Positions 1,477 through 23,640 of a stretch of DNA of 64,000 bases are shown here, piece by piece. The DNA is from Clostridia bacterium. GTDB lineage: Bacteria; Bacillota; Clostridia; Oscillospirales; CAG-272. The translations under genes were made by a program, and so were the position numbers. Below the pieces are notes generated by a model that saw only the letters and a list, made by a program, of their open reading frames with translations, did no database searches and was not told the DNA's origin. Location: positions 2,150 to 66,149 of the forward strand of contig JAFWYJ010000047.1 in the NCBI GenBank assembly GCA_017517745.1, given 5' to 3'. Each line of letters begins with the position of its first letter. Position 1 is the first letter of the stretch.

Positions 1477-1640
1477 TATACCTTGACCGTTCCACGTCCC
1501 ATACTCATTTTGAAATTGCAACAAATTATAAATCTCAGCTTTATTGGTAGAATGAGTCTGGTATAAATACATTTCCGAGGGCGACCGCCTCGGCAGTCTT
1601 TTTCTCTCAATTACTCACAGTGTTCCAAACACCATATATG

Positions 1641-1855
1641 ACATAAAAACAGCAAAATTTTTATGTAAAAATGATTCAAAAAATCGATGTTCAAAATACA
1701 TAAGTTCTTTCAGAGCAAATACAAGGTAATATAAGGTTTTTTGAGAGAATAAATAAGATTTTTACGGCAAAGCAGGCTTACAATATGCCGCAATTTTGTC
1801 CCAGCCAACATTCATTTGTGAGTGCAATTCACGACCCGGGCAGTCCTCACAATTC
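1641..1855 (-). repeat. Island junction repeat copy R1 (hairpins plus CCCGGGCAGTCCTCACAATTC box)
   Basis: Shares TTTTTATGTAAAAA, TTTCAGAGCA, the TTACGGCA/TGCCGCAA hairpin (1762-1769 / 1786-1793) and the box at 1835..1855 (20/21 identical to the R2 and R4 box). Confidence 0.8.
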
Positions 1856-2260
1856 TGTCAAATCCTGCACATTCCTAAAATGAGTCTGAGACACAATCGC
1901 GCACTTCTCGGCATTTCTTATACTTGCAAACAATTTTAATGCTCTATGCTTCCCTGTACAAAACTCACGACCATCTTTCTCGTATTCCGATGATAAAACA
2001 CCTTGAATACCACATGCAACCTCAGCAATGTAACTTATTATATCCAAAGTATCATTTCAAAGTATCAATTTGACACTTTGGAATCTCTATGTTTGATTTG
2101 AAACTTAGGTGCAAATCACCTAACTTTGCACTCAAATTCTCCATATTCATTTTGGATTCGTCCATACCGAGATGAAAACCGTACCAGAAATCAAATTTGG
2201 AATCGGTCTGATATGCGAGCGTTGTAGGAATACCCTCCACCCGGCAGTCTTCTGCGATTC
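1847..2260 (-). pseudogene. Decayed gene of unknown function, the most complete copy of the gene whose 3' end forms the island repeat family
   Basis: ORFs 2052..2240 and 1847..2047 become one frame if a 13-nt tandem duplication (GATACTTTGAAAT, minus strand, about 2040-2065) is removed. A further frameshift precedes a C-terminal NCEDCPGR reading across the box. The 5' end is cut by a stop just upstream of a second box copy at 2240..2260. Confidence 0.5.
2240..2260 (-). repeat. Degenerate extra copy of the 21-bp box (CCCGGCAGTCTTCTGCGATTC)
   Basis: Aligns to CCCGGGCAGTCTTCACAATTC with one deletion and three mismatches. On the minus strand it reads IAEDCR, versus NCEDCPG for the other copies. 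Confidence 0.55.
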
Positions 2261-2307
2261 TTTTAATACGACAAATCTATTGTTCGGACAAACCAATATA
2301 AACGAAA

Positions 2308-2344
2308 AGCCTGAACAGAGTACTTTTCTTGTACTGTTCAGGCT
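2308..2344 (-). terminator. Bidirectional stem-loop terminator downstream of the helicase-fusion gene
   Basis: AGCCTGAACAG..GTAC / GTACTGTTCAGGCT stem with a 2-nt bulge. A/T runs lie on both sides. Confidence 0.65.
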
Positions 2345-2356
2345 TCATTTTTGAAA

Positions 2357-5300
2357 TTATTGTAGATTCAGTTTCTTTCGGATAATTTCCAAACTTCTTT
2401 GAGTTGTATCCTCTTGCTTAAAACTTTCCACAATTTCTTCCATGATTTCAGAACTCCAATAAATCTTCAGTTTTTTCTTTGCCCTTGTAATTGCGGTATA
2501 GAAAATTCCATGAGTGATTTTTTCAGAGTTGCTTTTAGGAATAATAACTTTTACCGAATCATATTCCAAACCTTGTGCTTTGTGAATAGAAACAGCGTAT
2601 GCAAGTTGAAAAGGAATTACAGAATACATCCGATCCTCATCATTTGCATATTCAACAGAATCATCATGGGCGTACACGATAAATCTAATGCGCGTTGATT
2701 CTTCCGCTGCAGAGATAAAATCAATTCCTTCCTTCTCACAAAGATCTTTTGTTAAGTTCGTTGCAACATCAATCGTAAAAGATATATCCTTGCTTCGTTT
2801 TTCGATGTTGATAATAGTACCTTTTAGATTGTTGTAAAGGATGGAAAATCGTTGTGAGTCATTGAACAAAATGTGATCTCCAATTTTATAAGTCCATTCT
2901 TGCCATGTAACTGGTTCTCCACACGAATTGTCATTTTGAAAATAACTATTCATATTGTTCAACCCAAATTTACCATCATAATTCAAACACAAAACAACTT
3001 CGTCTTTATCCTTTTCTTCAAAAATTTTCTCACCAATTTCTTCAGAAAACGGACCATCCATAGCTAACTTTTCAACTATCAACTCGCCGCGATTTCTAAC
3101 ATCATCCCATAGACTAACAATATCCGGGTCTTTTGTTCGCCATGTATTTAATAATTCAACATTTGCTCCGTACGTATTGATTATGTCTTTTGCATAGAAA
3201 AACCAGTTTCCAAAATCAATAGATTCGATCTGATGAATGTCTCCGGCAAGCACTAAAAACGTATTCGGATTTATTTTTTTGAGGAATTCACACATCGTTC
3301 GATTATCAATGGTGCTGCACTCATCAACAAAAATAACATCATAATCGGTGAGGGTTACTTTCTTTGTAAAGCTGTCAATGCTTACGAATTCAGAGTCGGC
3401 ACCAGGATTGTCAATGCGTCTTTGTAAATTCTGTTTTGCAGTATGTGTTTTTGTGAGAAAGAGTTTCTTTTGCTTTGCCATCAAGTTCGATATATAATTA
3501 AGGAGCAGCGTTTTGCCCGTTCCGGCGGCGCCATAAATTAAAAGAATATGGGAGTTAACAAAAACATTTTGTAGAGCTACCCTCTTTAAATCATCCTCGA
3601 AAACAATACCACAGTTTCTTAGATATGTTTGATTAAACTCTTTTTGTCCGGGGTTATCAAGTTTTGAAAGTTCTAATAACTTGGATAAAATGCTTAGAGT
3701 GGTTTGTTCATATGATTCAATAGACACCAATCCATTGTTGATATTGATTTCGTATCCTTGAGCACGTTCCCAATCATCAAGGCACTTATTATACGTAATA
3801 ATTTGTTCTTCGCTTGCAATAGAATCGATATCAAAGAAAATTTCACCTGTTTTACCGATTTGACTTTGAATTTTTAAATACGGTTGAACAGTTTCAAGAT
3901 TAGCTCCTCCTGTTACATCTAAAATATTTCTAAAATTGCTTTCACCGCTTGTGTTGCTGCCAAAAAGATTAGAGATAAAAGGATTTTTTTCGAATGGGTA
4001 ACACCTGGTTGACAACCTTAAATTTGGTGACAACATCTTTCTTGCTCCAGGCCAAGGTTGCACTTTTTCGAGAGTTTCTTCTCGCAGATTGATAAGGAGA
4101 TATCTAACCGTGTTGCGACCAAATTCAAGAGAATCTTTTGAATAAGATTCTCTCAATTTTATCAGTACTTCTTTGAAATACGACGTGTTTGCATTGCAAT
4201 AAATTAAATCCACAATTTTAGAAAATGAAACTTCTTTTAAGTCAATTAGATCAAGCAAGTTGATACCAGACTCAGTTAGAAATCTCATAAGAGAATTGTA
4301 CTCGATGTAGTTTGAAGATATTGTCGTACGAATGTACAATATTTTTGCCAATTTATTAAGTGCGGACGGCTCAATTGCTACACCCCAATTAGTTATTATC
4401 TTGATTGTGGAAGCTACTCCCCACAAATCTAATTTTGCATTGATATATGCGATTTGTACCGAATAGTTAGTTGTAATGTTTTCTTTTGTATAAGCGGTGA
4501 TTCGGTTATACTTTGTTGCATATACACCAGCCAATTGCAGTGTAACCTCGTAATATCTTTCTTTCCCAACAAAGAATGGTGTCTTTTTTACAACATAAAA
4601 TTTTGAACCACTTAACTTTTGCGGAAGAATCTCTACAGATTTTATTACATCTGCAATTTGCTCATAATATTTCGTATCCGTTTTATCTATATGCAATGGG
4701 AATTTTTCTAAATTGTGTAGTACTGATATTCCATACTCTTTATAAAGGAAATCTCTAATTTGCCACAAAAAATTATAATATTTGAGCATTAATCGCTCTG
4801 ATTGTCCTTCATCCGGTTCTCGATCCTCAATATATTTAAGACCTTTTAGAAATGTAGCAAGATATTTCGTCTCCACCTTCAATAATGCTTGTTCCCAAGC
4901 TAACTGTAGGTTTGTTTGAGTATTTCCCAATCGCAACGAATTCAACAGCAAGGCAGAACGACACATATCGTATAGACGCGGTAAAATGTAATGAGAAACG
5001 TCGTCTCTGGTATATTCGGGATCATCTATAAGGTCTATGCCAGACGTTATATACTTATCACAAGCAGCAATAATCTTATCAATTTCACTTCTGCAAAGGT
5101 CTTTCTCGCTCAATTTGTTTACGAAAGAATGGCGTGCGGTGATTAATTCAAGTTTTTTGCAAAAAGAAACAATGCTATCTTCGGTATCAAAGATTTCTTC
5201 ATCCGCAGAGAAACTAATCGTAGCACTTTTCCTGTTGAAATCCAGCGAGTTAATAAAGTCTACTGACATGTACTTCCAAAACACTCTTTTTTTGCCTCGT

Positions 5301-5665
5301 TCATCTGGATTGAGCACAACAAAGAGAATTCCAGGATCTAATGTTACGCTTGTTGCAATATATGCCGGGAAAGCCAAACTGCGCAATGAATATTTAACGA
5401 TACCATCATTCTCTGTATAATCATGTGTTCCTTTAATTTGCACGTAAAAAGACTGCACAGGACGTCTGCACAAGTCGGGATTAGGGACAAGCTCAAAAAA
5501 ACCGTCTGTGTTTGGCCATTTGTCATTTTTTGAAAAATCACAATTGATTCTTCCGTTAGAATTAAGAAAAGACTCCAGTGTTGTAACAGCTGCAACATCT
5601 TCTGCTGATTGCTCAGTATGAGTTTTTACATGTACATCTATGATTTCTTTTGATTGTGATAACAT
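2357..5665 (-). CDS. Large fusion protein: N-terminal DUF4365-like (PD-(D/E)xK-type) module, about 500-aa helical middle region, C-terminal SF1 (RecD/AAA_30 + UvrD_C_2-like) helicase. Nhi-like architecture.
   Basis: 1102-aa ORF. N-terminus TDGFFELV...SFYVQIKGT resembles the D..E.K nuclease-like core. Helicase motifs: Walker A GAAGTGKT, Walker B FVDECS, GDIHQ, and C-terminal SIHKAQGLEYDSV and YTAITRAKKKL. Confidence 0.75.
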   Translation of the reverse strand: MLSQSKEIIDVHVKTHTEQSAEDVAAVTTLESFLNSNGRINCDFSKNDKWPNTDGFFELVPNPDLCRRPVQSFYVQIKGTHDYTENDGIVKYSLRSLAFPAYIATSVTLDPGILFVVLNPDERGKKRVFWKYMSVDFINSLDFNRKSATISFSADEEIFDTEDSIVSFCKKLELITARHSFVNKLSEKDLCRSEIDKIIAACDKYITSGIDLIDDPEYTRDDVSHYILPRLYDMCRSALLLNSLRLGNTQTNLQLAWEQALLKVETKYLATFLKGLKYIEDREPDEGQSERLMLKYYNFLWQIRDFLYKEYGISVLHNLEKFPLHIDKTDTKYYEQIADVIKSVEILPQKLSGSKFYVVKKTPFFVGKERYYEVTLQLAGVYATKYNRITAYTKENITTNYSVQIAYINAKLDLWGVASTIKIITNWGVAIEPSALNKLAKILYIRTTISSNYIEYNSLMRFLTESGINLLDLIDLKEVSFSKIVDLIYCNANTSYFKEVLIKLRESYSKDSLEFGRNTVRYLLINLREETLEKVQPWPGARKMLSPNLRLSTRCYPFEKNPFISNLFGSNTSGESNFRNILDVTGGANLETVQPYLKIQSQIGKTGEIFFDIDSIASEEQIITYNKCLDDWERAQGYEININNGLVSIESYEQTTLSILSKLLELSKLDNPGQKEFNQTYLRNCGIVFEDDLKRVALQNVFVNSHILLIYGAAGTGKTLLLNYISNLMAKQKKLFLTKTHTAKQNLQRRIDNPGADSEFVSIDSFTKKVTLTDYDVIFVDECSTIDNRTMCEFLKKINPNTFLVLAGDIHQIESIDFGNWFFYAKDIINTYGANVELLNTWRTKDPDIVSLWDDVRNRGELIVEKLAMDGPFSEEIGEKIFEEKDKDEVVLCLNYDGKFGLNNMNSYFQNDNSCGEPVTWQEWTYKIGDHILFNDSQRFSILYNNLKGTIINIEKRSKDISFTIDVATNLTKDLCEKEGIDFISAAEESTRIRFIVYAHDDSVEYANDEDRMYSVIPFQLAYAVSIHKAQGLEYDSVKVIIPKSNSEKITHGIFYTAITRAKKKLKIYWSSEIMEEIVESFKQEDTTQRSLEIIRKKLNLQ

Positions 5666-5777
5666 ACTTATATTTCTCCTTATCGAGCTATCAACTTAAA
5701 TATTTTGGAAATAGAAAACACTTATGATAAACGTGTTAAAAACCTTTTGTGTAAGCCCTATCACAATTAACAAACAT

Positions 5778-6860
5778 TTATTTCTTTCTAAAAGGTTTGT
5801 TTTGATATAAAACTACAGCATCTTGATCGTTGTCTATTATATCTTTTACATCACGATAAATAAGTTTCTTTTTGTGTATGGCATAATCCATTAGTGGAAC
5901 AATTTGTCCCGTTTTTTCATTAAGAATCGCGGGGGCTAAATAATATTCATTGAATTCATAATATATTTCTTTGAATAGATTATAATTTTTAAAATTATCA
6001 GTGGGATTAGCTCTTATAATTCTTGAAACATTGAGAATCATTGTTTCGTCGATAACACATCCCTGTGATTCAGCACGTTTGATTGCTTCGTCAAGGTTAG
6101 TTCCAACAACAACATAATATCCTTTCTCTTCATTAGGAACATCTCCTTCGATTAATGATATACGTATGTCATCATTTACATCATTTTTTCCAACGCTCGC
6201 AATCCAATCTGAAAATATCTTTTTAGCATACCTCTCATTGCAAAAAGGGAGTAATAATGTAGGCAAATCTGTATACCCAACACAAAAACCTGCCCCACGC
6301 CAAACCGCTTTATCCCATGTTTTTATGTCAATAAGAGATGTTACAAACAAAGTTTTTCTTTCCTTTTTAGGTAAAGGTCGTAGTTTCCCCAAAGGCGGTT
6401 TTTCACTTGTCTTGACGCCTCTTAAACGCCAATATAACTTATCAAAGCCTTTGTCGGAACTTACATTGTAATATGTAGCTCCTTGAATTGGAGTAGGAAT
6501 ATACTTTAAATCATCTTCTTCGAAAACAACGGGGATAAACCGATTATTATCAGAACCAGACATGTATAGTTTCTGATAAATAATATTGCTTTCCCATTTT
6601 ACACCTTTGCCTCCGTCTGTTTTACCCAAAACTTTCTGCTGGTAACCAGAAGAACCAATGATGATTACAAAGTCAGATTCTTCAATTTGTCTTTCCATCC
6701 ATCTTGGCCACCCTTCGGACGGAGACTCTTCGTATTGATCCAACGAAGTATCTATTCCTTCTTGTCTAAGATGATTGGAGAATTGTAAAACCTGGTCCGC
6801 AAACTCTACTGAGTCTTGCGAATAACTGATAAAAACTTTAGGATTATAGTTTTCTTCCAT
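5778..6860 (-). CDS. TIR-domain protein with about 190-aa uncharacterised C-terminal domain
   Basis: 360-aa ORF. N-terminus KVFISYSQDS...SDFVIIIGSSGY is a typical bacterial TIR/SEFIR-like beta-alpha core. Starts 18 nt after the M48 peptidase stop, with an AAAGGGA RBS. Confidence 0.7.
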   Translation of the reverse strand: MEENYNPKVFISYSQDSVEFADQVLQFSNHLRQEGIDTSLDQYEESPSEGWPRWMERQIEESDFVIIIGSSGYQQKVLGKTDGGKGVKWESNIIYQKLYMSGSDNNRFIPVVFEEDDLKYIPTPIQGATYYNVSSDKGFDKLYWRLRGVKTSEKPPLGKLRPLPKKERKTLFVTSLIDIKTWDKAVWRGAGFCVGYTDLPTLLLPFCNERYAKKIFSDWIASVGKNDVNDDIRISLIEGDVPNEEKGYYVVVGTNLDEAIKRAESQGCVIDETMILNVSRIIRANPTDNFKNYNLFKEIYYEFNEYYLAPAILNEKTGQIVPLMDYAIHKKKLIYRDVKDIIDNDQDAVVLYQNKPFRKK

Positions 6861-6878
6861 GCTATAAATGTCCCTTTC

Positions 6879-7541
6879 TCAAAGAATTTCCATTATTTTT
6901 CGGTTTGCTTTCAACCAGTTTTGTTCCAATTCAAACTTCGGAAGAACAGTTCTTACCCTCACCCAAAATTGTTTACTGTGGTTTTGGTAATCAATGTGAC
7001 TTAATTCGTGAACAACGACATAATCAATAACAGACATGGGGCACATTACTAATCTCCAAGCAAAATTCAAGGAATTATTTTGGCTACAGGAGCCCCATCT
7101 GTGCTTTGCATCTGTTATCTTTATGGAAGTTGCTTGTACTCCCATCAGCTTCGAATAGCGTTCAACCCGCTCTGAAATAATAAACAATGCTTGTTTTTTC
7201 AAATACTCAGTTAAAACATCTTTCGAATGTTCTGAATTTGGCAACTTGATTACTTTGCCATCGAAGGCGACATCTTGAGTTTCACAAAGCTCAACGATAT
7301 AATCTTCACCAACAAAAGGAACAACATCGCCCGTTGACATCGTTATTGAAGAATACTTCTCGTCAAAAGTCGCTACACTATTTATTTTTTTAGAAATCCA
7401 CCCTTGCTTTTCAGCAACAAACGAGTTGATTTCCATAGTGCTTGCAATGTGCGGAGCTCTGACGATCAATTCTCCATTTGTATTAACAACCAAAGCAATT
7501 GTTTTTCTATTGCTACGAATTATTTGTTTTGGTTCTATCAT
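6879..7541 (-). CDS. M48/YgjP-like (DUF45) zinc metallopeptidase associated with type I R-M
   Basis: HELSH zinc motif (VVHELSHI). The ATG at 7541 overlaps the hsdR TGA as ATGA. This family commonly follows hsdR. Confidence 0.8.
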   Translation of the reverse strand: MIEPKQIIRSNRKTIALVVNTNGELIVRAPHIASTMEINSFVAEKQGWISKKINSVATFDEKYSSITMSTGDVVPFVGEDYIVELCETQDVAFDGKVIKLPNSEHSKDVLTEYLKKQALFIISERVERYSKLMGVQATSIKITDAKHRWGSCSQNNSLNFAWRLVMCPMSVIDYVVVHELSHIDYQNHSKQFWVRVRTVLPKFELEQNWLKANRKIMEIL

Positions 7542-10500
7542 AATTCGTTCCTTCCATAGTGGCAATATGCCAATTCCATGATCTTTTGAGCTATATTCTT
7601 ACGATTGCTGAAAACTGACGGAATTGAACTGAACAAAGGATTTCTCAGCAGAACATTGATAATGTATGTACGCAATTGCTTTTGAAGAGAAATATTGCCC
7701 CAGAAATTGATAGCACTTGTATTCTTCTTAATGGTGCACAAAATATCGGTAACAATATCCTTGAGTTGATTGAAGTCCTGTTCGGACAAATCCTCGTATG
7801 ACTTATCTCCGAAGATCTCTTTTTTTACTAATGCAAAGAAAGGCATCTCAGTTTTAGGATCAAAGCCATATGTGTTTTCACGCTCACGTCCAAGTATAAT
7901 ATCTTCCTGACGCATTTTTTCAAGAGCTGCGTAAAGATCGTTCCAATTGTCTTTTAGAAGTTGCAATATCTTATCCAATTTATCGCTCATTCTATCAAAG
8001 AATTCGGGGTCTTTAGGCTGATTAATATTGATATACTCTCTAATTGCGTAAGTTAATTCATCACACTTTTGGCGAACAGACTTTGTGCCCTTGTCTTTTA
8101 CCCCAAATTCGGGTGACAAAATAGAAACAGGCGGTATCTTGGGGTCAACTCCGTTAACCTTCAAGTATTCTTCAACAATTGCCCTTACTTTGTCACTTGC
8201 ATCATGCATGGAAAATCGAGGATCTCGGCAACTGTTGGCTACCGATTGGCGTATAAACGACAGCATTTTGTAGTCGTTTTTGTAATCCAATGCTGCAGGA
8301 TCGGGCAAAACTCTGTCAAACAACTTTGAAATTTGCCTGAACAGTGCATTGAATTTTTCGCGCAATTCGGGATCAGCAACAAGCTCCTGAATAATCAGCG
8401 GAGCTTCATCAATTGATTTTGCTCCAATATTATCTCGTATAAATTGCTTCATAGTCAAGAAAAAAGTGTGAAGCTTATCGATATCTTCTTCTTTCTTCTG
8501 CAAGACATCCAACATTTCTTCAATGTCAGGGTCTGCATATTTTGACAAAGCGGATTTAAGATGATTGGTAACACCAATATAGTCAACCACATAACCGCAT
8601 TTTTTATTATTTCCGCAGGTTCTGTTAACTCTTGCTATAGCTTGAAGCAGATTGTGATCTCTTATCACTTGATCGAGATACATAACCTGCTCAACGGGCG
8701 CATCAAATCCGGTTAACAGCATACTTTTAACGATAATAATACCGTAATTACTGTCGTTACCGTGTTCATCTTCTTCACCGAACTGCATCTTAAATCCAGC
8801 AATGATATTATCGTTTCTCGATTCATCTGCAAACTCTTTCAAATGAGGCTTATCGTTATTTGAAGAAGATATGATACAAGCCGCTTTTAGCTTCTCCAAC
8901 AATTCAATATTCACATTGTTGGGATTGCTTTCTTTCAACTCTGCAATTTTGATTGGCAAAAGTTCATTGATAGCACAATAGTAGCGATATGCTGCCTCTC
9001 TTGAGTAAGCAACAATTTGTGCCTTGAATCCGTTAACAAAAACAGTGTTGATGTAGTGATTCAACATATCGTTTGCTTTATTACGGATAACAGCCTTGTC
9101 CTCAAGATATGCTTTCAATACTGTTTTATTCAAAAGCATTTCTTGTTCTTCCGAAGTAATCATGCCGAATATATCGGCGAATTTTTCATTCATTGCTTCG
9201 GGATCTGTAATCTCACTCTCGGTGGCTCTGCCCTCGTATTTGATTTCAACAACGACTTCATCTTCCACCGCTTGACGCATGGAATAAGTATCTATATATC
9301 CACCAAAGGTTTCTGCCGTTTTGTCGATGGGCGTTCCAGTAAATGCAACCTTGACGGAATTCGGCATGGATTTCCACATGTTAGCCGCAAGATCACTATA
9401 TTGGCTTCTATGAGCTTCGTCAATCATCAACAAAATATTGGATGATTCATTGAGAACGGGGAAGCTTGTTTCTTCGCCACGCTCTCCAAACTTATGCACC
9501 ATTGCAATGGTGATGTCAGAAGCTGTATTTTGTATCAGTTTACGAAGACCTTCACTACTTTTTGCAACATGGCAAGTGTACTTTACGCTACTACTTGTCT
9601 TATATAATTGCTTTTGCAAGTCTGTGCGGTCAAGCAGCAAAACGATTTTGTAGTTCGCAAGATCCGCAGAATTGTACATTTTTCGGATAACGAACATCAT
9701 GGTAAGCGATTTGCCGCTACCTTGTGTATGCCAAACCGTACCGCCTTTATTAAAGGTGTTTTCGCCGTTGCGTAACCGTTCAATGATCTTTCTTGCACCA
9801 CGATATTGTTGGTATCTTGCTACGATTTTTAGAGTACGACCTTCATCATCTTCTTTATAAACGGTATAGTTCTGCAAAATATCCATGAAATTGGAAGGAG
9901 AAAGCATTCCTTGAATCAGTATTTCTTGACTCGAGGGAGCTCTGCCTTCTACGATGTCAGAGAGACGATAGGGATAAGGATCTTTCCACTCGATATAGTG
10001 TGCGTGTTTTCCCGTAATTGTTGAATAGCGTGCTTCATTAAACGACGTCGATATCATGAACTGATTATAAAAGAACAGTTCGGGAACACCTTCAGCTTCA
10101 GCAGCACCGCGACGATCCTGATATCTCATCAATTGCTCGATGCCTTCATGAATCGGATCGGTAATTCCGGGGGACTTACATTCGATTACAACCAGAGGCA
10201 AACCATTAACGAACAGTACGATATCGGGAATAATATGTGCACCGATTCCAGGGATTTGAATTTTATACTGCGAAATAGCAAGATAGCTATTAAGCGTATT
10301 ATTGGGATCAAAATGATCCACATCAGAGAAATCAATAACACGCACAGGACAATTTACTTCTCCCGTTTCTTCATTGAACGCGGAAAAGCCCAGTGTTATT
10401 CTGTCAAAAACCTCAACATTGGCGTCCAATAGGTTTCTTGAAGAATACTGTTGCATTTCCATCACAAGATCATCTGCTTGTGCATCGGTGAGCCAAGGGT

Positions 10501-10705
10501 TTAATCGAAGGAGTGCGGAACGAAATTCACTGACGATAATAACTTCTGACAACGAAGTTCTATATGAGCTTTCGGGATCATGCTTTTGACTATCATTCAG
10601 TGCAAGTGTTTTCCAACCTAATGCCGATAACTGATCCATGAAAGGCTTTTCGACAAAGCTATATTCACTTGCTCTGACTCTATCTCTTTCACTCATTTTC
10701 AACAC
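7538..10705 (-). CDS. hsdR: Type I restriction enzyme R subunit
   Basis: 1055 aa. Motifs TQGSGKSLTM (Walker A), MIDEAHRSQ (DEAH box) and QAIARVNR (motif VI). Position is downstream of hsdM and hsdS. Confidence 0.9.
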   Translation of the reverse strand: MLKMSERDRVRASEYSFVEKPFMDQLSALGWKTLALNDSQKHDPESSYRTSLSEVIIVSEFRSALLRLNPWLTDAQADDLVMEMQQYSSRNLLDANVEVFDRITLGFSAFNEETGEVNCPVRVIDFSDVDHFDPNNTLNSYLAISQYKIQIPGIGAHIIPDIVLFVNGLPLVVIECKSPGITDPIHEGIEQLMRYQDRRGAAEAEGVPELFFYNQFMISTSFNEARYSTITGKHAHYIEWKDPYPYRLSDIVEGRAPSSQEILIQGMLSPSNFMDILQNYTVYKEDDEGRTLKIVARYQQYRGARKIIERLRNGENTFNKGGTVWHTQGSGKSLTMMFVIRKMYNSADLANYKIVLLLDRTDLQKQLYKTSSSVKYTCHVAKSSEGLRKLIQNTASDITIAMVHKFGERGEETSFPVLNESSNILLMIDEAHRSQYSDLAANMWKSMPNSVKVAFTGTPIDKTAETFGGYIDTYSMRQAVEDEVVVEIKYEGRATESEITDPEAMNEKFADIFGMITSEEQEMLLNKTVLKAYLEDKAVIRNKANDMLNHYINTVFVNGFKAQIVAYSREAAYRYYCAINELLPIKIAELKESNPNNVNIELLEKLKAACIISSSNNDKPHLKEFADESRNDNIIAGFKMQFGEEDEHGNDSNYGIIIVKSMLLTGFDAPVEQVMYLDQVIRDHNLLQAIARVNRTCGNNKKCGYVVDYIGVTNHLKSALSKYADPDIEEMLDVLQKKEEDIDKLHTFFLTMKQFIRDNIGAKSIDEAPLIIQELVADPELREKFNALFRQISKLFDRVLPDPAALDYKNDYKMLSFIRQSVANSCRDPRFSMHDASDKVRAIVEEYLKVNGVDPKIPPVSILSPEFGVKDKGTKSVRQKCDELTYAIREYININQPKDPEFFDRMSDKLDKILQLLKDNWNDLYAALEKMRQEDIILGRERENTYGFDPKTEMPFFALVKKEIFGDKSYEDLSEQDFNQLKDIVTDILCTIKKNTSAINFWGNISLQKQLRTYIINVLLRNPLFSSIPSVFSNRKNIAQKIMELAYCHYGRNEL

Positions 10706-14538: not shown

Positions 14539-14607
14539 TTTAATTACCTCGTTTTTCGTCTATATGGCAATGGACAGAGCCTATTTGCCCCTAAATTCGC
14601 ATAAGTA

Positions 14608-15441
14608 TTATGCGTTAAGCAGAATGACAGAATTTGCAATTCGTTTTTCTCCCCCAACAGGAGTAGTATAAAAACGCTGTTCGATTCCGAACAAAAGTTT
14701 TTTCATATCATCTTCAGTTCCTATATTAAACGAATTTTCTGAAACTTGAAGTTCGGGGCAGTAACTACCAATATAAGCAAAGATGTTTTTTCTATCATCT
14801 TCTTCGAGTTCGCTCAATGTTTTCATTGCTAAAGCTATTCTTTTTCTATTAGGTGTTTTAACACTTTTTGCAGAATAGCCATCCGTTAGATTTATAAAGT
14901 CATTATTCAAGAACTGCGTTGTTTCTTCTTCGGTTGCTTCGCGATAAAGTTGGTCAATTCCTTTAAATATACTTGTAATAGCTTCAAGTCGCTTAAAATA
15001 CAAGATGTCGTTCGACTTGTCATAGATTGCATCGGGCAGATCATTGATAACTATTTCACTACAGTCATCTTGATATTCGTATGCTTCACCCAAGGCGAGT
15101 ACACGCCTCTTAGAAAGCAACTTTGATTTAGATGTATTTTGAAATGCTATATAGTTATCAGACAACACGAAGATGAAGTCAATTCGTGAAAAATCTTTTC
15201 TATCTAACGTTTGGAAATCGACAGCTGTATCGGTTGACGATAGAAGATCAATAGCATACTCTGTTTCCGATGCCTTCTCAATACAAAACCATTCACCTTC
15301 TTCAAGAAGCGTACCCGGAGCGTATGTGATCGATAAATCTTTGGTAATCGTAGGAATATTGTACAACGCACCATCCACAGAAATAATAGCCCTGTACTTA
15401 TTTTTCTCTCTTTGTTTTAACTTGGCACAAATACTATCCAT
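14608..15441 (-). CDS. Soluble 277-aa protein, possibly KwaB/DUF4868-like
   Basis: Clean ORF. Its start overlaps the stop of the upstream 4-TM gene (ATGGATAG). The architecture matches Kiwa, but family membership was not verifiable by eye. Confidence 0.55.
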   Translation of the reverse strand: MDSICAKLKQREKNKYRAIISVDGALYNIPTITKDLSITYAPGTLLEEGEWFCIEKASETEYAIDLLSSTDTAVDFQTLDRKDFSRIDFIFVLSDNYIAFQNTSKSKLLSKRRVLALGEAYEYQDDCSEIVINDLPDAIYDKSNDILYFKRLEAITSIFKGIDQLYREATEEETTQFLNNDFINLTDGYSAKSVKTPNRKRIALAMKTLSELEEDDRKNIFAYIGSYCPELQVSENSFNIGTEDDMKKLLFGIEQRFYTTPVGGEKRIANSVILLNA

Positions 15442-15979
15442 TTTTATTCTTCCTTCCTGTGAGTTCTATGAAAGTAGTGTCATTGATACGGTATAGGGTA
15501 TCAGTTGATAGTTCTGATGCTTTTCGAGCAACTGATCCTTTTTTTATCAAAAATATTCGCGTTCCACTTTCCGTAAGGATATTATAGTAGTGATATCCAA
15601 ACAGAAGGAAAATAGGGTTGAAATATTGAGTTTGTGATACAAGGGTAAAAACAAACACGATGACAAAAACAAATAGCATTGTCAAATGTTCTGAGACACT
15701 AATGGAAACAAAGAAATACCCAAGGTATATTGGGAGAAAATCTCCGTCTGCCAACGACAGTTCTTTACATCCTTTAAGCGTGTCTTTTTTGAATTTTTTT
15801 GTTATAAGCAATGAAAGTGCTGATAACGCAATTGAACATCCTATCAATAATAATCCCAAAAACCACACGGGAATTATCCAAAAAGTCCATCCATTTTTTA
15901 TCACATAAATTATTCCCATCCATGATGTAGCATTAAATGCAAGTAAAAGTTTAAATATAAAATTCATTATTATCCTCAA
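15434..15979 (-). CDS. Small 4-TM membrane protein with cytosolic tail, possibly KwaA-like
   Basis: 181 aa with four hydrophobic segments, then a charged C-terminal tail. Lies 21 nt downstream of the GIY-YIG gene. Ends in TAG, overlapping the next ATG. Confidence 0.6.
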   Translation of the reverse strand: MRIIMNFIFKLLLAFNATSWMGIIYVIKNGWTFWIIPVWFLGLLLIGCSIALSALSLLITKKFKKDTLKGCKELSLADGDFLPIYLGYFFVSISVSEHLTMLFVFVIVFVFTLVSQTQYFNPIFLLFGYHYYNILTESGTRIFLIKKGSVARKASELSTDTLYRINDTTFIELTGRKNKNG

Positions 15980-16000
15980 TGCATAAGTTTGTTGAGCGCG

Positions 16001-16849
16001 TTATTTTCTATAAAGCTCGTCCAATGTTTTTCCGTCCTTGTCCTTCCATTCAACCCAACCGTTGATGCTGCCGCCCAAAACGAACATAGCTGCAGAACTT
16101 GGTGAGGTGAAGGATACCGAAACAGTCAATTTGTACTTCATGTCAACGCAAACAATATTGCCGTTAGCAAGAGCCGTTTGGCGTTGCTTTTCCATTGTTG
16201 CGGAATGACACTTACGCTTTATGTCGATTTCTGAACCTTCAAGAACCTCGAAGTTCTCACCATCGTAAACACCAAAAGCAAGAATACCGTTTCGAGTGGT
16301 ATGTAAAGTGTTAGCTTCGTTCAAGGTAACCTTGGTGTTATCCATTTTGTAACCTTGAGTTGCCATAATGAACTGAATTTCTTCGTAAACTTCCTCGATC
16401 AAAGGAAGATCATATTCATCAATCTCGTACTTGGGATTGACTGAATTTTCCACTTTGTAGCGTTTGGAATCGTGCGCCTTGCCAATGGCATAAGCTTCAA
16501 GACCGCTTATCATATCAAGGGAGAAGGTTTTATTGTCAGCCAAAAACATAATTGCCTTGTTCCAAAAGTCCTTTGAACGATTATGATCATCAAGGCGAAC
16601 AACGCCATTTCTCGTCTGACCGATATAAATCTGAGCGATCTTGTTATCGTCGTTCTCGCTGATCAGATAGTAAATGCCAGGACGATTGATGCCCGAAAGC
16701 TTCTTTGCTTCTGACAGTAGAGGACGAGGAATAACATAGGTTGTCATCGTGGAGAGATGTCTGCGAATGGATCGAATTCCATCGGGCTGACCGTTGTGAT
16801 ATATGATTTCAAGCTTTTTGCTGATTCCCATTTTTGTTTCCCCTTTCAT
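16001..16849 (-). CDS. GIY-YIG nuclease domain protein with DUF4357-like C-terminus
   Basis: GIYYL...YIGQT...R...H motif series in the N-terminal half. The C-terminal part SPSSAAMFVLGGSINGWVEWKDKDGKTLDELY resembles DUF4357. An alternative start is at 16831. Confidence 0.75.
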   Translation of the reverse strand: MKGETKMGISKKLEIIYHNGQPDGIRSIRRHLSTMTTYVIPRPLLSEAKKLSGINRPGIYYLISENDDNKIAQIYIGQTRNGVVRLDDHNRSKDFWNKAIMFLADNKTFSLDMISGLEAYAIGKAHDSKRYKVENSVNPKYEIDEYDLPLIEEVYEEIQFIMATQGYKMDNTKVTLNEANTLHTTRNGILAFGVYDGENFEVLEGSEIDIKRKCHSATMEKQRQTALANGNIVCVDMKYKLTVSVSFTSPSSAAMFVLGGSINGWVEWKDKDGKTLDELYRK

Positions 16850-16850
16850 A

Positions 16851-17933
16851 TTATATTAAAACTTCCCATTTGCCGTAGCGCTTTCCGCTTTCACGACGGA
16901 TATAATTCTTATCTTGCAGGGATTTCATCACACGTTTAACGGTGCTGAGAGATTTTCCTGTGGTATCGGCCAGCTCTTGCTGCTTGATGTTGGGGTTCTT
17001 TGCAACCAATTCCAGTACCGCCAATTCTTCCAAAGTACAGTCCAAAGTATCAAATTGAGACTTTGGAACTTCAGAAATGACACTTTGGGAATCGTTTTCC
17101 TCCACATAATCCACGTGCATATATCTGTTTTTCAACTCGTGATTGGTTTCCAAGAGGAGATTTCCGAAGAACATTTCCAAAAATTTCGTTGTGGAGTGAA
17201 TGCCTTTTTGCAAATTGTTATAGTTCGCCCTGACGAGCGCATTGCGGAAATACCACGAATTCTTTTGGAAAGCATCGTTATTTACGCGAAAGCCAAAGGT
17301 TTTCATATATTTGATCATAAAGACGGCAGTCGCTCTCGTGTTGCCCTCGCAGAAGGGATGAATCTGCCAGATGTCAGATGCGAATTTTGCGAGGTGTCTG
17401 ACGGCCGCTTCTACGGACAAAACCTCGTAGGAAAACTGCTTTTCGGTTGCAAAATCGTAGTCCAGAGTGTCACGAATGCTGTTGAAATCCGCATAGATGA
17501 CCGTATCGCCGTTCAGCACCCATTCCTTCTTGGTAATGTTGTAGGTCCTCACTTGACCTGCGTACTTGAACACACCCTCAAACAGTCTGCGGTGAATGGT
17601 CATCCACTCCGCTGGCGAGAACTGAAAGCTCTTTTCACCGAGGAGCTTTGCGATTCTTGCGGAAACAATGTCGGCTTCCTTGGTCGCGTCCTCAATTTCG
17701 GTGCGCTCGGTGCGCTGCTCATAGTAGCTTTGAATGCGCTTTTGTGCCTCGTCTATACTGATATTGCCCTCGATATGCTCCTTGGCGGTATCCAAAAGAT
17801 ATTCAGAGGTTTTAAGACCATCAACCGCTTGCAGTCCGATAGCGGTTTGCCACGCCTCACTCTTTTCAATTTTGCCGGGCTCGCCCTGTTTTATATATTC
17901 TTCAAGTTCAAATTGCCAATTTTTCTCTGACAT
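16851..17933 (-). CDS. Fic family protein with C-terminal winged-HTH
   Basis: Fic motif HPFCEGNTRAT. C-terminal LADTTGKSLSTVKRVMKSLQDKNYIRR is wHTH-like. GGAGG lies 7 nt upstream of the ATG at 17933; the ORF extends to 17945. Confidence 0.8.
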   Translation of the reverse strand: MSEKNWQFELEEYIKQGEPGKIEKSEAWQTAIGLQAVDGLKTSEYLLDTAKEHIEGNISIDEAQKRIQSYYEQRTERTEIEDATKEADIVSARIAKLLGEKSFQFSPAEWMTIHRRLFEGVFKYAGQVRTYNITKKEWVLNGDTVIYADFNSIRDTLDYDFATEKQFSYEVLSVEAAVRHLAKFASDIWQIHPFCEGNTRATAVFMIKYMKTFGFRVNNDAFQKNSWYFRNALVRANYNNLQKGIHSTTKFLEMFFGNLLLETNHELKNRYMHVDYVEENDSQSVISEVPKSQFDTLDCTLEELAVLELVAKNPNIKQQELADTTGKSLSTVKRVMKSLQDKNYIRRESGKRYGKWEVLI

Positions 17934-17946
17934 ATTTGCCTCCATA

Positions 17947-18363
17947 TTACTTTTCGTTTTTCTGCCTATAAATCTCTTTCAGATCCTCGATTGCCACTTC
18001 GGGGGCGAGGGTGTGAAAGATAAGCCAATTGCGGCTCATGGTTTCGGCAGGAGCTTGGCGGTAGATGTCCTTACTATCCTCGCCTGTGGCGAAGTGCCAG
18101 AAGCGGTAGAGGTAGCCTGCCCAATAAAGCACCTCTTTATCGTACACGGTGCCGCCTTTGGTGAGCTCTGCGTTATCGGCAATCTCCGCGAGAAGATATT
18201 CTTCGCCTGCCCATTGCATACGATTGAACTTGGAGTCAAGTCCTTTGGCAACCTCGCCTGTCATAAACGCTTTGATGAAGGTTGCGCTATCGTAACCGTT
18301 CGCACCTGACAGCTCGAAAAGTCTGCCTTGTATGTCACACATTTTCAGTTGGAGTTCGTTCAT
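17947..18363 (-). CDS. Hypothetical 138-aa protein, possibly DUF3791-like partner of the upstream DUF3990-like gene
   Basis: Clean ORF. Its stop is 1 nt from the Fic ORF and its start is 12 nt after the upstream gene. The assignment rests on gene context and a weak C-terminal resemblance only. Confidence 0.5.
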   Translation of the reverse strand: MNELQLKMCDIQGRLFELSGANGYDSATFIKAFMTGEVAKGLDSKFNRMQWAGEEYLLAEIADNAELTKGGTVYDKEVLYWAGYLYRFWHFATGEDSKDIYRQAPAETMSRNWLIFHTLAPEVAIEDLKEIYRQKNEK

Positions 18364-18375
18364 TGTGTCCTCCTA

Positions 18376-19239
18376 TTATTTCGCCTCGTCAAGTATCTCG
18401 TCGTAGAACTTTCCTTCGCGGCGGTAGTTCTTGCAAATGTCGTTTGCAAGTGTTATTCCCCTCACGCGGTTGGCTTCGCTCTCGTCCTGAAGAAATCTGC
18501 GCTCCATCATCGAAATGGGAAGCTCCCTTTCCACTCGAACGGCTGCACACGCCTTTTCGGTGGTCGCTACGTACTGCTTTCCGAGTTTAAGGGCGGAAAG
18601 ACTATTAACGAGAGCCATATCTGTGATGCCGCCGGTGAAGAAGTTATCCAGCACGTAGAACATTCTGTCGTTTGCGATACTGCCGATCACGAGATCCTTA
18701 CCTGCATCAAGCTGACTGTATTTTCCGTAGAAGTCCGTACCCTTGATCTGCTCCATTCTGCCACGGTGGTAGGCAACAAGCATTGCCCAATCGAGATCGG
18801 CCTTGATCTCAACCGAGTCGAGCTCACGCATATCGATCGACACGATGTAGAACTTGGATTTTTCGAAATCGCAGATAAGCGTCAGCGGTTGTCCGGGCTC
18901 GGTGCCCATGTAGAAGCCCTTGCCGAAGTCACACATTTCTCGGCTCTTGGGCGCGATGTCGCCAACGATACCCGACTTTGAGCCGTGGTAAAGCAGAACA
19001 CGACCTTCTTCAAGTGCGATTTCCTCGGTGGCTGTCTTGATCTTATCGAGGATCATCTGATAGACGGGAACGCCCTGCGCCTTGCAGTATTCGTAAATAG
19101 TTGCTTGCGCCAATTTCGTGGGGAGCGCACGACCGTTTTCCCAACGGTTGACCGTAGCAAATGTCACGCTCAACTTCTCGGCGAAGTCGGCTTGGCTCAG
19201 CCCCAAATATTCTCTTATACCCTTGATTAGCTTTTGCAT
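18376..19239 (-). CDS. XRE-family HTH fused to a DUF3990-like domain
   Basis: HTH LGLSQADFAEKLSVTFATVNRWENG. Downstream LLYHGSKSG...CDFGKGFYMGT matches the DUF3990 signature as remembered. GGAGG RBS precedes the ATG at 19239; the ORF track extends to 19392. Confidence 0.7.
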   Translation of the reverse strand: MQKLIKGIREYLGLSQADFAEKLSVTFATVNRWENGRALPTKLAQATIYEYCKAQGVPVYQMILDKIKTATEEIALEEGRVLLYHGSKSGIVGDIAPKSREMCDFGKGFYMGTEPGQPLTLICDFEKSKFYIVSIDMRELDSVEIKADLDWAMLVAYHRGRMEQIKGTDFYGKYSQLDAGKDLVIGSIANDRMFYVLDNFFTGGITDMALVNSLSALKLGKQYVATTEKACAAVRVERELPISMMERRFLQDESEANRVRGITLANDICKNYRREGKFYDEILDEAK

Positions 19240-19278
19240 TTTATGCCTCCAATAGATATAACAAATATCATCTCTTAT

Positions 19279-19307
19279 ATTATACCAAATGTTATATCGT
19301 TTGTCAA
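19279..19307 (-). promoter_or_regulatory. Consensus sigma-A promoter for the HTH-DUF3990 operon
   Basis: Minus strand reads TTGACA-17 nt-TATAAT (plus-strand TGTCAA at 19302-19307 and ATTATA at 19279-19284), about 40 nt upstream of the ATG at 19239. Confidence 0.7.
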
Positions 19308-19317
19308 TATCCGTGCC

Positions 19318-19520
19318 AAAAAACATGGGTATTTTTTGAACAAAAAACAGCTTCAAAAAGTACCCATAATTTTGAAGGGCAAAAATCACCACAATCCCTT
19401 ACGCCGCCTTGCTTTTTTCTGCCTGCATTTCCTCAAATTACGTTAGAGAGAGGCTTCATCATAACGCAATTTCACAATGATTGTCTTTTTTCTTTCCGTC
19501 CCGGGCAGTCTTCACAATTC
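19318..19520 (-). repeat. Island junction repeat copy R2
   Basis: AAAACATGGGTATTTTT...AAAAAGTACCCAT terminator-type hairpin. Hairpin AAATTACGTTA (19435-19445) / TAACGCAATTT (19462-19472). Box CCCGGGCAGTCTTCACAATTC at 19500..19520. Confidence 0.85.
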
Positions 19521-19633
19521 TCCAGATTCGTGCTATTCTTAGGATGAGTTATAAAGCGAATTTGCTATAATGATCGTCGCTCTATGCCGATTTTCCGATT
19601 GCTTTGTTCGGATTATCGCCCTCTAATATTCAG

Positions 19634-19925
19634 AAAAACATGGGTATTTTCGAGTGAAAATTGGCTTTGAAAAATACGCCATGTCTCAACTGCGCAACAA
19701 TCCTCCTTTGCACATTTAAAAATGAAGAAATTTTTTATGTAAAAACCACCTTAAAATCGGGTGCTCTAATTACATAAAAAATTTCGCGGAAAAGTCTTAT
19801 TTTTCAGAGCATTCATGAGGTTATTGCTCAAAAATTACGCCAAAGAGAGCAGTCTATGTGGCGCAATTTCGCAAGTTCTCAACTTTACAAAAGCCCCCGG
19901 GTAGTCTTTGCAATTCACACAATTC
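19634..19925 (-). repeat. Island junction repeat copy R3 (long form)
   Basis: Starts AAAACATGGGTATTTT. Contains the perfect 11-bp stem TTTTTATGTAA / TTACATAAAAA, the hairpin AAATTACGCCA (19832-19842) / TGGCGCAATTT (19858-19868), and a box variant with an internal 9-bp duplication at 19896..19925. Confidence 0.8.
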
Positions 19926-19999
19926 TTGCTGCTTTCAGAATCGGCATGGAGCGAAATTGCTTGTAAGAAATATGCCCCATACTCATTCTGTTGTTTCTA

Positions 20000-20027
20000 T
20001 TGATATTTTTCTAAAATGTGATATAAT
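20000..20027 (+). promoter_or_regulatory. Sigma-A promoter with extended -10 upstream of the DUF6933/pRiA4b gene
   Basis: TTGATA (20000-20005), 16 nt spacer, TGTGATATAAT (TATAAT at 20022-20027). Confidence 0.55.
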
Positions 20028-20062
20028 GTATTATAGAAGTGAGTGCGAGGAAGGAGAAAAAG

Positions 20063-21184
20063 ATGGTTATAGGCTGTACGAAAAAACTGCTTGATTTTTT
20101 GGGAATAAAGCCACAGAAATTAACGACCGAGACCGATCCACTGTTTTCTTGGACGGCGAATCTCATCATACTCAATCGCCGCAAGACGTTGGTTGCGGTA
20201 AACAATGCGACCAAATGTTGTTTTGTCCTTCACGGTCTGACAGCAAAGAGCATTTCAAAATTGCCCGAGCTGATAAAAGACGGTATTCGCGCGGTGTTGC
20301 AAAGTGAGTATGTTGCTTCCGAGATTATAGGAAAATATCTTGACGAATGTGGGTAGGACTTAACATTTGCATCAACTGCATCTCGGTCTGACGTGGCATA
20401 TTGCAACAAGGCGTGTGAGCGTGTGGAGCGTTTTGTGAATTTGTTTGAGTCTGATAGTATATTTCAAGAGAAATATCTGCCGTGGATCAACAACGATATG
20501 ATCGCAAAAGAAGATTATTCGTTTATCTATGAAAAGTTGATTGCCACGCTTACCGAAAGATACGGCTCACCCGTGCAGTCTGCTCACGTGGCAGAGCTCG
20601 AAGTCACGCTTGATCTCCTTACTCCCTGTAAGAGAACGCTGGTCGTTCCGAGTGATCTCAATTTCTATCAGCTTCACAGGATTTTGCAAGACGCATTTGA
20701 GTGGCACGATTGTCATCTGCATCAGTTTGTTTTGAAAAAGGACAGTATGGGCAGACCAATGAAAATCATACAACCCGGATTTATGAAAAACGAAGATTGG
20801 CTTGCGCTTGACGAAAACCTTGAAAGCATCGACAGCACGACGGTTACTATTCGTGAAATTTTCGAATCACAAAATAAGATTGAATATGAATACGATTTCG
20901 GTGACGGTTGGATACATATGATCAAGCTGAAGCGTTTTATTCCCGACTGCACCACACCATATCCACACTGTACCGAGGCGATTGGTGACGCGCCTATGGA
21001 GGACAGCGGCGGACCGTATGGGTTTGACGAGAAGATGAAAATCCTGAACGATCCCGATCATCCCGAACACGAATGGATCTCGGAATGGGTGAGGAGTGCC
21101 TGGTGGCATTCCCTTGATTTTGATGCGATCAATCGCAGAATCAGGCAGGAACACCGTCGTTGCATCCCCGTTCAATACGACTAA
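20063..21184 (+). pseudogene. DUF6933-like N-terminus plus pRiA4b ORF-3-like (MM3350-like) domain, interrupted by a single in-frame TAG at 20354..20356
   Basis: ORFs 20039..20356 and 20393..21184 are in the same frame, and the 36 nt between them have no other stop. N-terminus KKLLDFLGIKP...LFSWTANLIILNRRK. C-terminus YEYDFGDGWIHMIKL. AAGGAG RBS precedes the ATG at 20063. Confidence 0.6.
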
Positions 21185-21192
21185 AACCATCA

Positions 21193-21394
21193 AAAAACAT
21201 GGGTATTTTTCGATCAAAAATCAGCTTCGAAAAGTACACATGTTTTTTCTTTTATTCGCCCTCAAAACTCCTTGTAATATAAGGACTTTCGGCGGTAGGT
21301 CTGTTTCAAATTACGCATGAGAGAGGCTTGTGCAGTGCGTAATTTCGCAATTTTCCCACGTTACATAAGCCGCCCCGGGCAGTCTTCACAATTC
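21193..21394 (-). repeat. Island junction repeat copy R4
   Basis: Terminator-type hairpin CATGGGTATTTTTCGA / TCGAAAAGTACACATG with T-runs on both strands. Hairpin AAATTACGCA (21308-21317) / TGCGTAATTT (21336-21345). Box at 21374..21394 is identical to the R2 box. Confidence 0.85.
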
Positions 21395-21815: not shown

Positions 21816-21950
21816 ATGAAAGAACAGACACATGTAACAAGTGTTTTTAAAAACAAAACATTGACAAAGGAGGATTACACGCGTATATGGATAGAACTAA
21901 TTTCAGCATTAGAACGCAGAAAAAGTGTAAATTTTTCTCTAAGTCAATGA
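21816..21950 (+). CDS. Small 44-aa protein upstream of the serine recombinase; a role as directionality factor or regulator is speculative
   Basis: AAAGGAG RBS 7 nt before the ATG at 21816, within ORF 21726..21950. No recognisable motif. Confidence 0.35.
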   Translation: MKEQTHVTSVFKNKTLTKEDYTRIWIELISALERRKSVNFSLSQ

Positions 21951-23583: not shown

Positions 23584-23584
23584 A

Positions 23585-23640
23585 AAATCGTCAACTTCAA
23601 AAGCACCGAAAACCCTTGAAATATAAGGATTTTTCGCGTT
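23585..23640 (-). repeat. Truncated island junction repeat copy R5
   Basis: AAAAATCGTCAACTTCAAAAGCACC...CTTGAAATATAAGGATTTTTCGCG aligns with the R1 segment at 1680-1748 and the R4 segment at 21210-21295. Similarity stops at the junction with the catalase fragment. Confidence 0.6.

Follow-up and report, generated by a model that had tools for sequence, protein, structure and literature searches.

The window studied here, that is the whole stretch of 64,000 nucleotides (nt) taken from contig JAFWYJ010000047.1 of a Clostridia bacterium, carries four copies (R1 to R4) of a non-coding module of ~210-290 nt, all four in one orientation. These modules lie between gene blocks, in and beside a mobile element that splits the spore-coat gene cotJC and that is, judging from its predicted gene content, a dense anti-phage defence island. 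Each module contains a stem-loop, called hairpin 1 in the following, and a 21-nt box, CCCGGGCAGTCTTCACAATTC, located 25-45 nt after the hairpin in plus-strand order (repeat family D1). The result is a structured non-coding motif, statistically supported, which belongs to no described family. The hairpins and boxes of the four modules are positioned as follows.

1762..1793, no strand given: hairpin 1 of R1, arms TTACGGCA / TGCCGCAA
1835..1855: box of R1, CCCGGGCAGTCCTCACAATTC, containing the TGA stop of the minus-strand open reading frame (ORF) 1847-2047
19435..19472, no strand given: hairpin 1 of R2 (pattern, folding, covariation)
19500..19520: box of R2 (repeat family D1)
19832..19869, no strand given: hairpin 1 of R3 (pattern, folding, covariation)
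19896..19916: box of R3, with 3 substitutions (repeat family D1)
21308..21345, no strand given: hairpin 1 of R4 (pattern, folding, covariation)
21374..21394: box of R4 (repeat family D1)

Four stem-loops had been described at this locus by a first-pass annotation made from the letters alone, and their coordinates and quoted arms were found to be exact by pattern search and by reading of the sequence. The arms of hairpin 1 read AAATTRCG / CGYAATTT. The pattern AAATTACG..CGYAATTT returned 4 matches at 3 places of the window, for an expectation of 0.00 over 100 shuffles; R1, in which the outer AAA is absent, falls outside this pattern. The box, searched with up to 4 substitutions, occurs 4 times in the whole assembly (2,168,539 nt in 62 contigs), every time at this locus, and a covariance model built for the motif returned the same 4 copies only at E < 0.2 in the genome of the window. 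A dispersed palindrome of the REP/BIME type was rejected on these two counts. The copies are 65-87% alike. The box also includes the word TTGTGAA, which may be half of a Rex/CRP-like word. Two degenerate boxes were detected in addition, on the same strand as the boxes of the modules.

2238..2258, minus strand: extra degenerate box GAATCGCAGAAGACTGCCGGG, sequence as on the minus strand
1572..1606, minus strand: degenerate box AAGACTGCC at 1592-1606, fused to a GC-rich terminator hairpin at 1575-1593

A coding origin of the box was considered and rejected: six-frame translation of all the copies gave no ORF in common, one minus-strand frame reading NCEDCPG and another ending in EL-stop, with a real ORF closed in R1 only. 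When the 73-amino-acid (aa) ORF of R1 was used as query for longer proteins, 1 protein was obtained among 6 candidates, and it looks itself like a read-through ORF; the small ORFs have no Pfam match.

The evidence that carries the motif is the covariation of hairpin 1. An alignment (A2) was assembled from 20 distinct copies of 5 paralogue types, found in the window and in 10 other loci (8 other Clostridia metagenome-assembled genomes, or MAGs, and one metagenome contig), and pairing was counted over the 208 cells of an 11-pair helix. The proposal that pairing had been kept by compensatory substitutions, made at first on four copies, holds with twenty. Standard pairs occupy 199 of the 208 cells (95.7%), as compared with 81.9% in shuffled alignments, of which 0 out of 500 reach the observed value, and controls in which the arms were slid pair in only 23.5-38.9% of cells. 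Six of the 11 pairs show changes on both sides (22 cells): positions 9 and 10 display three Watson-Crick pair types each, position 3 flips from A-U to U-A in one copy, and positions 4 and 5 are C-G in R5, the fifth type described below. We count in this way at least about eight double changes of independent origin. Selection for pairing is well supported by these data; the stem covaries, in our reading, because selection acts on the pairing and not on the sequence. RNAalifold returned the helix of hairpin 1 only, and a second helix involving the box was discarded on this basis. The loop behaves differently from the stem. A motif GAGAGAG on the plus strand, or CUCUCUC on the minus strand, is kept in R2, R3, R4 and R5 despite their differing stems, and it has been lost in R1.

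Hairpin 1 and the box are parts of a larger assembly with a terminator-like architecture. Read on the minus strand, the module comprises in order the 21-nt box, the spacer of 25-45 nt, hairpin 1, an AT-rich CCTT..AAGG motif, and a long hairpin with a T-run (hairpin 2, with variants 2a and 2b). All three kinds of hairpin are A-rich in their 5' flank and T-rich in their 3' flank (AAATT..AATTT for hairpin 1). The following hairpins accompany the modules.

1655..1705: hairpin of type 2b of R1 (TTATGTA..TACATAA)
19319..19373: hairpin 2 of R2, long and A/T-flanked, with T6 after it on the minus strand, directly upstream of the minus-strand promoter 19307-19279
19634..19690: copy of hairpin 2 in the interval from R2 to R3; on the minus strand, T5 follows (repeat D11)
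19732..19785: hairpin of type 2b of R3 (TTATGTA..TACATAA type)
21192..21248: hairpin 2 of R4, terminator-like in both directions with T6 on each strand, 8 nt after the stop of PRiA4_ORF3
21265..21294: AT-rich CCTT..AAGG hairpin motif of R4, 80% like the copy by the right end of the element (z 7.1)
23606..23638: CCTT..AAGG hairpin after the recombinase gene, adjoining the right attachment arm

On the minus strand, the module ends are hairpin 2 of R2 (-18.3 kcal/mol, T6), hairpin 2a of R3 (-15.1 kcal/mol, T5), hairpin 2 of R4 (-17.2 kcal/mol, T6) and hairpin 2b of R1 with its T-rich tail. A 17-mer made of the minus-strand 3' arm of hairpin 2 and its T-run is identical in 3 copies (D11). Intrinsic terminators combine a GC-rich stem and a loop of 3-8 nt with a T-run placed immediately behind the stem. 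Hairpin 1 resembles this description poorly: its loop spans 16-18 nt, only 3-5 T follow it, and it was not listed by the terminator scan, whereas hairpin 2 carries T5-T6. The word YRCAATTY occurs 10 times in three module regions, in a single orientation and ~47-49 nt apart, as compared with 0.142 per kb genome-wide.

Relative to transcription units, the modules are placed as follows. R1 stands between convergent genes and the last minus-strand ORF ends within its box, R2 and R3 are located between divergent operons, and R4 lies in a non-coding stretch of ~540-560 nt (21180-21740) upstream of a 44-aa ORF and of the recombinase gene. This stretch folds far beyond shuffled sequences (z -8.3 on the plus strand, -7.5 on the minus strand); it is built of long inverted repeats, which include 21447-21545 and 21629-21722. 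On the minus strand, the HTH-DUF3990 gene is preceded at 19279-19307 by a perfect TTGACA-17-TATAAT promoter, extended by TG and matching the consensus at 12/12 positions, and a second strong promoter at 20000-20027 on the plus strand precedes DUF6933. The minus-strand regions upstream of the boxes have no sigma-70-type promoter in common. An operator-like palindrome of 28 nt, TTTCAAAGTATCAATTTGACACTTTGGA, is present at 2055-2082 and 17041-17068, 15 kb apart and with 89% complementarity between the copies, one of them being located a short way upstream of a TATAAT that precedes the small minus-strand ORF by R1.

The motif has a restricted distribution. The exact degenerate pattern of the box was retrieved in 11 stretches belonging to 9 contigs of 8 Clostridia/Oscillospiraceae MAGs, and in one metagenome contig. 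A second metagenome match (L015), whose GC-rich flanks have nothing in common with the module, was read as chance. The search of viral contigs with the same pattern gave 0 matches, and blastn of the R4 module gave none in phage and plasmid records. No box was found in 60 relatives, of which 36 belong to the same genus; many MAGs of this set are 60-85% complete. In 150 further genomes of the order, the covariance model returned only three matches, with E ~0.006-0.008 per genome, which were read as chance. The copies found elsewhere are orthologues of the four types of the window, to which must be added a fifth type, R5, with stem AAACCGCGCCA / TGGCGCGGTTT, located between R2 and R3 in one relative (L011); the number of units in the array is therefore variable. 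At that place (L011:4086-4188), the R5 stem is GC-rich and followed by TTTTT, and the R5 box is degenerate.

The block R2-R3-R4 is kept as one syntenic unit in 5 other loci (L006, L009, L011, L013 and L014). R1 is found without R2-R4 in two MAGs (L004 and L008), and R2-R4 without R1 in others (L010, L013). In L004 and L008, R1 lies downstream of a yjbR locus with a duplicated yjbR 3' fragment, and convergent with a gene for an FAD oxidoreductase. The full yjbR, its duplicated 3' fragment, or both (L004:3586-5512, L008:5321-5512) flank inserted genes by the R1 module, which in L008 encode a type III restriction system, a RES-domain protein and a T5orf172 protein. This arrangement suggests that yjbR contains a second hot spot of integration. 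An 87-nt relic of the 3' end of cotJC is also retained in L004. The occurrence of the motif is limited to a single lineage of defence islands that split cotJC and to a neighbouring locus.

Where it is present, the module is strongly conserved. R1 shows ~8 differences over ~270 nt among three genomes, for a whole-region identity of ~89%, and the non-coding stretch 21190-21730 is conserved at 0.83-0.98, as compared with ~0.8-0.9 in the neighbouring genes. In L013, the core of R2 was retained with the sequence on both sides replaced.

The host element is defined on the right side by a large serine recombinase followed by the C-terminal part of cotJC. Its main genes in the window are listed below, all those from 2357 to 19392 being on the minus strand.

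2357-19392, minus strand: PDC-S53 helicase; bSEFIR/TIR protein; YgjP-like peptidase; type I restriction system (hsdR, hsdS, hsdM); Kiwa (KwaA, KwaB); PDC-S14 GIY-YIG/DUF4357 protein; Fic-HTH protein; HTH-DUF3990 protein
20039-21184, plus strand: DUF6933 and PRiA4_ORF3
21816..21950, plus strand: 44-aa ORF upstream of the recombinase, no Pfam match
22024..23583, plus strand: large serine recombinase (Resolvase, Recombinase, Zn_ribbon_recom, DUF4368)
23684..23890, plus strand: C-terminal part of the split cotJC (Mn-catalase family), right junction of the element at ~23683

The N-terminal part of cotJC, preceded by cotJB, is located on another contig (C26:47936-48340, within the stretch C26:47538-48400 of locus L059), with the left junction at ~C26 48340. 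The two halves read through as ..NEDLAA|EQKARTTYDN.. and CAGA is common to both junctions; since they join in frame at this common sequence, the element is seen to split cotJC. Beyond the C26 junction come a 766-aa RNase III-domain protein, a viperin (pVip) and an Smr protein (L059:2804-6349). From its position, the 44-aa ORF may be a directionality factor. Among 29 loci with relatives of the recombinase, drawn from 401 genomes of the order, the C-terminal part of cotJC directly follows the recombinase in 18 and the N-terminal part stands beside it in 4, which suggests that the element inserts in either orientation. The module is present beside 0 of these 29 recombinases, and the R4 region has no match among the same loci. 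The breakpoints of the cargo between genomes (window 2251, 16001, 16858 and 18373) do not fall at modules, with the exception of one homology break at 19521 (L013), which coincides with the end of the R2 box. Elements inserted in sporulation genes are known from skin in sigK, SPbeta in spsM and gin in gerE (PMC5025042, PMC4191935, PMC5595907). As in these cases, the present element splits a mother-cell sporulation gene and has a large serine recombinase at one end; it differs by its target, cotJC, and by its dense anti-phage cargo. Repeated hairpin modules go unmentioned in the portions of those reports that were consulted.

The strand of the putative RNA is a more delicate question. The wobble position on which the first-pass annotation had relied is as described, an A-C on the plus strand in R1-R3 and a standard pair in R4. 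Read on the minus strand, this position (position 6) is G·U in 10 copies, A-U in 6 and G-C in 4, and these three states favour the minus strand. The strand call drawn from it does not hold over the twenty copies. Out of the 208 cells, 187 are Watson-Crick; the remainder gives 12 G·U and 9 mismatches on the minus strand, versus 8 G·U and 13 mismatches on the plus strand. Position 3 in three R3-type copies and position 11 in R4-type copies form wobbles on the plus strand alone; at position 11 the plus-strand pair is T·G or C-G, and R4 favours the plus strand. Folding energies are divided in the same manner: R1, R2 and R3 reach -11.6, -12.8 and -15.6 kcal/mol as minus-strand RNA versus -5.9, -6.4 and -12.2 as plus-strand RNA, and R4 gives -11.8 on the plus strand versus -9.0 on the minus strand. 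Relative to shuffles, hairpin 1 as minus-strand RNA obtains z scores of -2.6, -3.6, -3.0 and -1.6 from R1 to R4.

Other hints are likewise found on both strands. The TGA stop of the minus-strand ORF 1847-2047 within the R1 box, and the closure of every module by a hairpin and a T-run when read in that direction, point to the minus strand, which appears from these signals to have the better termination. The plus strand is suggested by the place of R4, within 540 nt of non-coding sequence that precede the 44-aa ORF and the recombinase gene and that are covered in part by the X16 contigs given below, and by an extended -10-like sequence, TGCTATAAT, after the R2 box. The long hairpins between R4 and the recombinase fold about equally well on both strands in 7 orthologues and therefore give no strand signal. 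Contigs assembled from RNA libraries cover R2, R3 and R4; being unstranded and possibly containing DNA, they show presence in RNA libraries only, give no strand, transcript ends or expression level, and their uncovered stretches carry no meaning. Those of run X16 cover 21321-21754 and 21835-22057 with a gap between, and one contig of run X18 matches only 19435-19523, its flanks being different.

The reading that we favour, tentatively and at less than even odds, is that the modules are stacks of terminator-like hairpins which bound transcription units, hairpin 1 being kept by selection on its pairing. It is based on the A-rich 5' and T-rich 3' flanks of all the hairpins, on the position of hairpin 2 of R4 by a gene stop, and on hairpin 2 of R2, which shields a promoter. 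Transcripts entering a module would fold the stems, then stop or be trimmed there; the stems may protect the 3' ends of these transcripts, and the modules would insulate neighbouring units, the defence genes and the recombinase among them. The A-rich and T-rich flanks would let hairpin 1 act on either strand. That the hairpin acts as RNA, on which strand it does so, and that transcripts are stopped or stabilised there are all inferred. From the conserved loop and the box, a recognition step may be suspected in addition. The closest known counterparts are bidirectional intrinsic (Rho-independent) terminators and clusters of terminators between gene blocks, in which A-rich and T-rich flanks similarly allow both strands to fold: the modules are found at the ends of transcription units, their stems covary, and hairpin 2 of R4 has T6 on both strands. 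Hairpin 1 departs from this class by its conserved loop of 16-18 nt, its short T-run and the accompanying conserved box of 21 nt.

Several points weigh against this reading. Hairpin 1, with such a large loop, only 3-5 T and its absence from the terminator scan, is a poor classical terminator, and a plain terminator would not conserve its loop, the motif of which persists in R2, R3, R4 and R5. Termination does not account for the box or for the oriented YRCAATTY words. R2 and R3 stand between divergent operons, where no terminator is needed, and the absence of the module beside 29 of 29 recombinase relatives implies that the element family does not need it. Wobble pairs are an unsafe basis for fixing the strand, and the RNA-library contigs are unstranded, with DNA carry-over possible.

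Some of these difficulties would be relieved if the box and the hairpin formed a regulatory RNA, either a family of small or 3'-UTR-derived sibling RNAs or a cis-acting leader, with a loop bound by a protein or a target; the minus-strand loop is CU-rich and anti-Shine-Dalgarno-like, the plus-strand loop GA-rich and Shine-Dalgarno-like. This explanation, possible although doubtful, is consistent with a loop conserved while the stem covaries, with minus-strand units of ~210-290 nt that have terminator-like ends, with a number of tandem units that differs between genomes (R5 in L011), with the X16 contigs, according to which R4 may belong to a long leader of the recombinase operon, with the marked folding of 21180-21740, and with the T·G or C-G state of R4-type copies at position 11 on the plus strand. 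Against it stand the absence of a sigma-70-type promoter shared by the minus-strand regions that precede the boxes, the loss of the CUCUC loop motif in R1, the failure to identify a target, and the lack of an Rfam match at permissive thresholds. The gathering threshold of Rfam 15 returned only a tRNA and the L10 leader over the whole window; with E up to 5, the regions 19000-24200 and 1300-2400 gave chance-level matches to miRNA, snoRNA and SraB only, none of them on the hairpin-plus-box cores. LhrC and the csRNAs are sibling small RNAs of Firmicutes with CU-rich loops. The modules resemble them by their several diverged copies, some in tandem, by a loop that is CU-rich on one strand and by a terminator at the end; unlike them, they come with no promoter, no target found and no strand evidence. 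Another explanation is that the modules are inert, decaying copies of the 3' end of one ancestral gene and its downstream region, spread by duplication in the island. The R1 box indeed overlaps a stop codon, the last ~18 codons upstream are alike in R1 (CAIVSQTHFRNVQDLTEL) and R4 (CVISKSWYVNRRILQEL), all frames of R2 and R3 are interrupted by stop codons, and the copies are only 65-87% alike. Yet decay hardly agrees with a pairing maintained by ~8 or more independent double changes, with cores retained where the flanks were replaced, or with orthologous modules more conserved than the neighbouring genes, and this possibility is judged decidedly unlikely.

The remaining explanations place the function in the DNA. 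The modules could be sites for protein binding or recombination, that is fossil or secondary attachment regions left by fused cotJC elements or sites for a protein of the island, the two arms co-varying as the half-sites of one dimer. Attachment sites of large serine recombinases are imperfect palindromes of ~40-50 base pairs around the crossover, placed at the ends of the element. Hairpin 1 is a 38-base-pair palindrome that has a 9-mer, TTGCGTTAT, in common with the P' arm of the reconstructed attP (shared with the arm of R2), the real junctions being at ~23683 and C26 ~48340. The CCTT..AAGG motif of R4 matches copies by both ends of the element (z 7.1 at attR, 4.5 at attL), a degenerate look-alike of hairpin 1 comes after the CCTT motif ~60-110 nt inside the left end on C26 (z 4.1), and the YRCAATTY words are regularly spaced in one orientation. 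Such sites remain unlikely, for apart from the CCTT motif the modules align locally with attP, attL and attR no better than shuffles do, which speaks against a fossil attachment site by sequence, and the 9-mer has a chance of ~0.03 by our own estimate. Moreover, dimer sites usually keep their arms and vary in the centre, the reverse of what is seen here, with a conserved centre and variable inner arms; the modules are missing beside all the recombinase relatives, and the breakpoints of the cargo are away from them, the one at the end of the R2 box excepted. The strand-specific folded DNA site of the attC type, which the first-pass annotation had offered as its alternative, is largely refuted and can scarcely be credited as a substrate for cassette capture. 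It draws on imperfectly paired, strand-sensitive hairpins in one orientation adjoining a recombinase gene, with spacings of 397 and 1476 nt that resemble small cassettes. Integron attC sites span 57-141 nt, carry R'' (RYYYAAC) and R' (GTTRRRY) cores at the foot of the hairpin, and belong to arrays of exchangeable cassettes next to an integron integrase, a tyrosine recombinase; hairpin 1 has 38 nt and neither core in its arms. The only recombinase here is the large serine recombinase, with 0 matches to any tyrosine-recombinase family among the 22 ORFs scanned in 1-26 kb, and integron-like cassettes were ruled out, the block R2-R3-R4 being intact in 5 other loci and the variable cargo being bounded elsewhere than at modules. 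A broader version, highly unlikely in our estimation, is that each box-plus-hairpin unit is a landing site in the DNA, folded or marked by a protein, where sporulation-gene-splitting elements would stack and reshuffle non-coding units and defence modules, a Clostridia accretion system that might be functionally comparable to attC or SCCmec and tied to the large serine recombinase or another enzyme. It is kept open because the att-proximal motif recurs in R4, a hairpin look-alike is found at the left end, the number of units varies and the L013 break falls at the end of the R2 box. Stacked elements of the SCCmec type are separated by direct repeats, the integration site sequences, and moved by large serine recombinases. 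The present island shares with them direct repeats in a composite island with such a recombinase, one copy lying over the 3' end of an ORF; it differs in that its junctions are in cotJC with only CAGA in common, in that breakpoints are mostly not at modules, and in that excision products were not seen.

The host element of this motif joins two topics, the developmentally excised elements of sporulation genes and the islands of anti-phage defence. Should the modules insulate or time how the defence genes and the recombinase are expressed, they would show how islands hold toxic cargo silent and modular; if they are instead recognition sites, they may explain how islands are assembled. Little practical gain is to be had before measurements give the transcribed strand and the ends of the transcripts.

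Two further observations concern the surroundings of the modules. The gene of a Rieske-fused FAD oxidoreductase exists in two diverged copies, at 2-1363 of the window and at C26:53276-53974, the latter cut by the contig end, with ~85% protein identity by eye. A duplication, a rearrangement of one island with another, or a MAG that mixes strains could account for this pair. Far from the modules, the L10 leader and the tRNA-Lys(UUU) gene, at 52187-52339 and 54467-54542, are ordinary chromosomal features.

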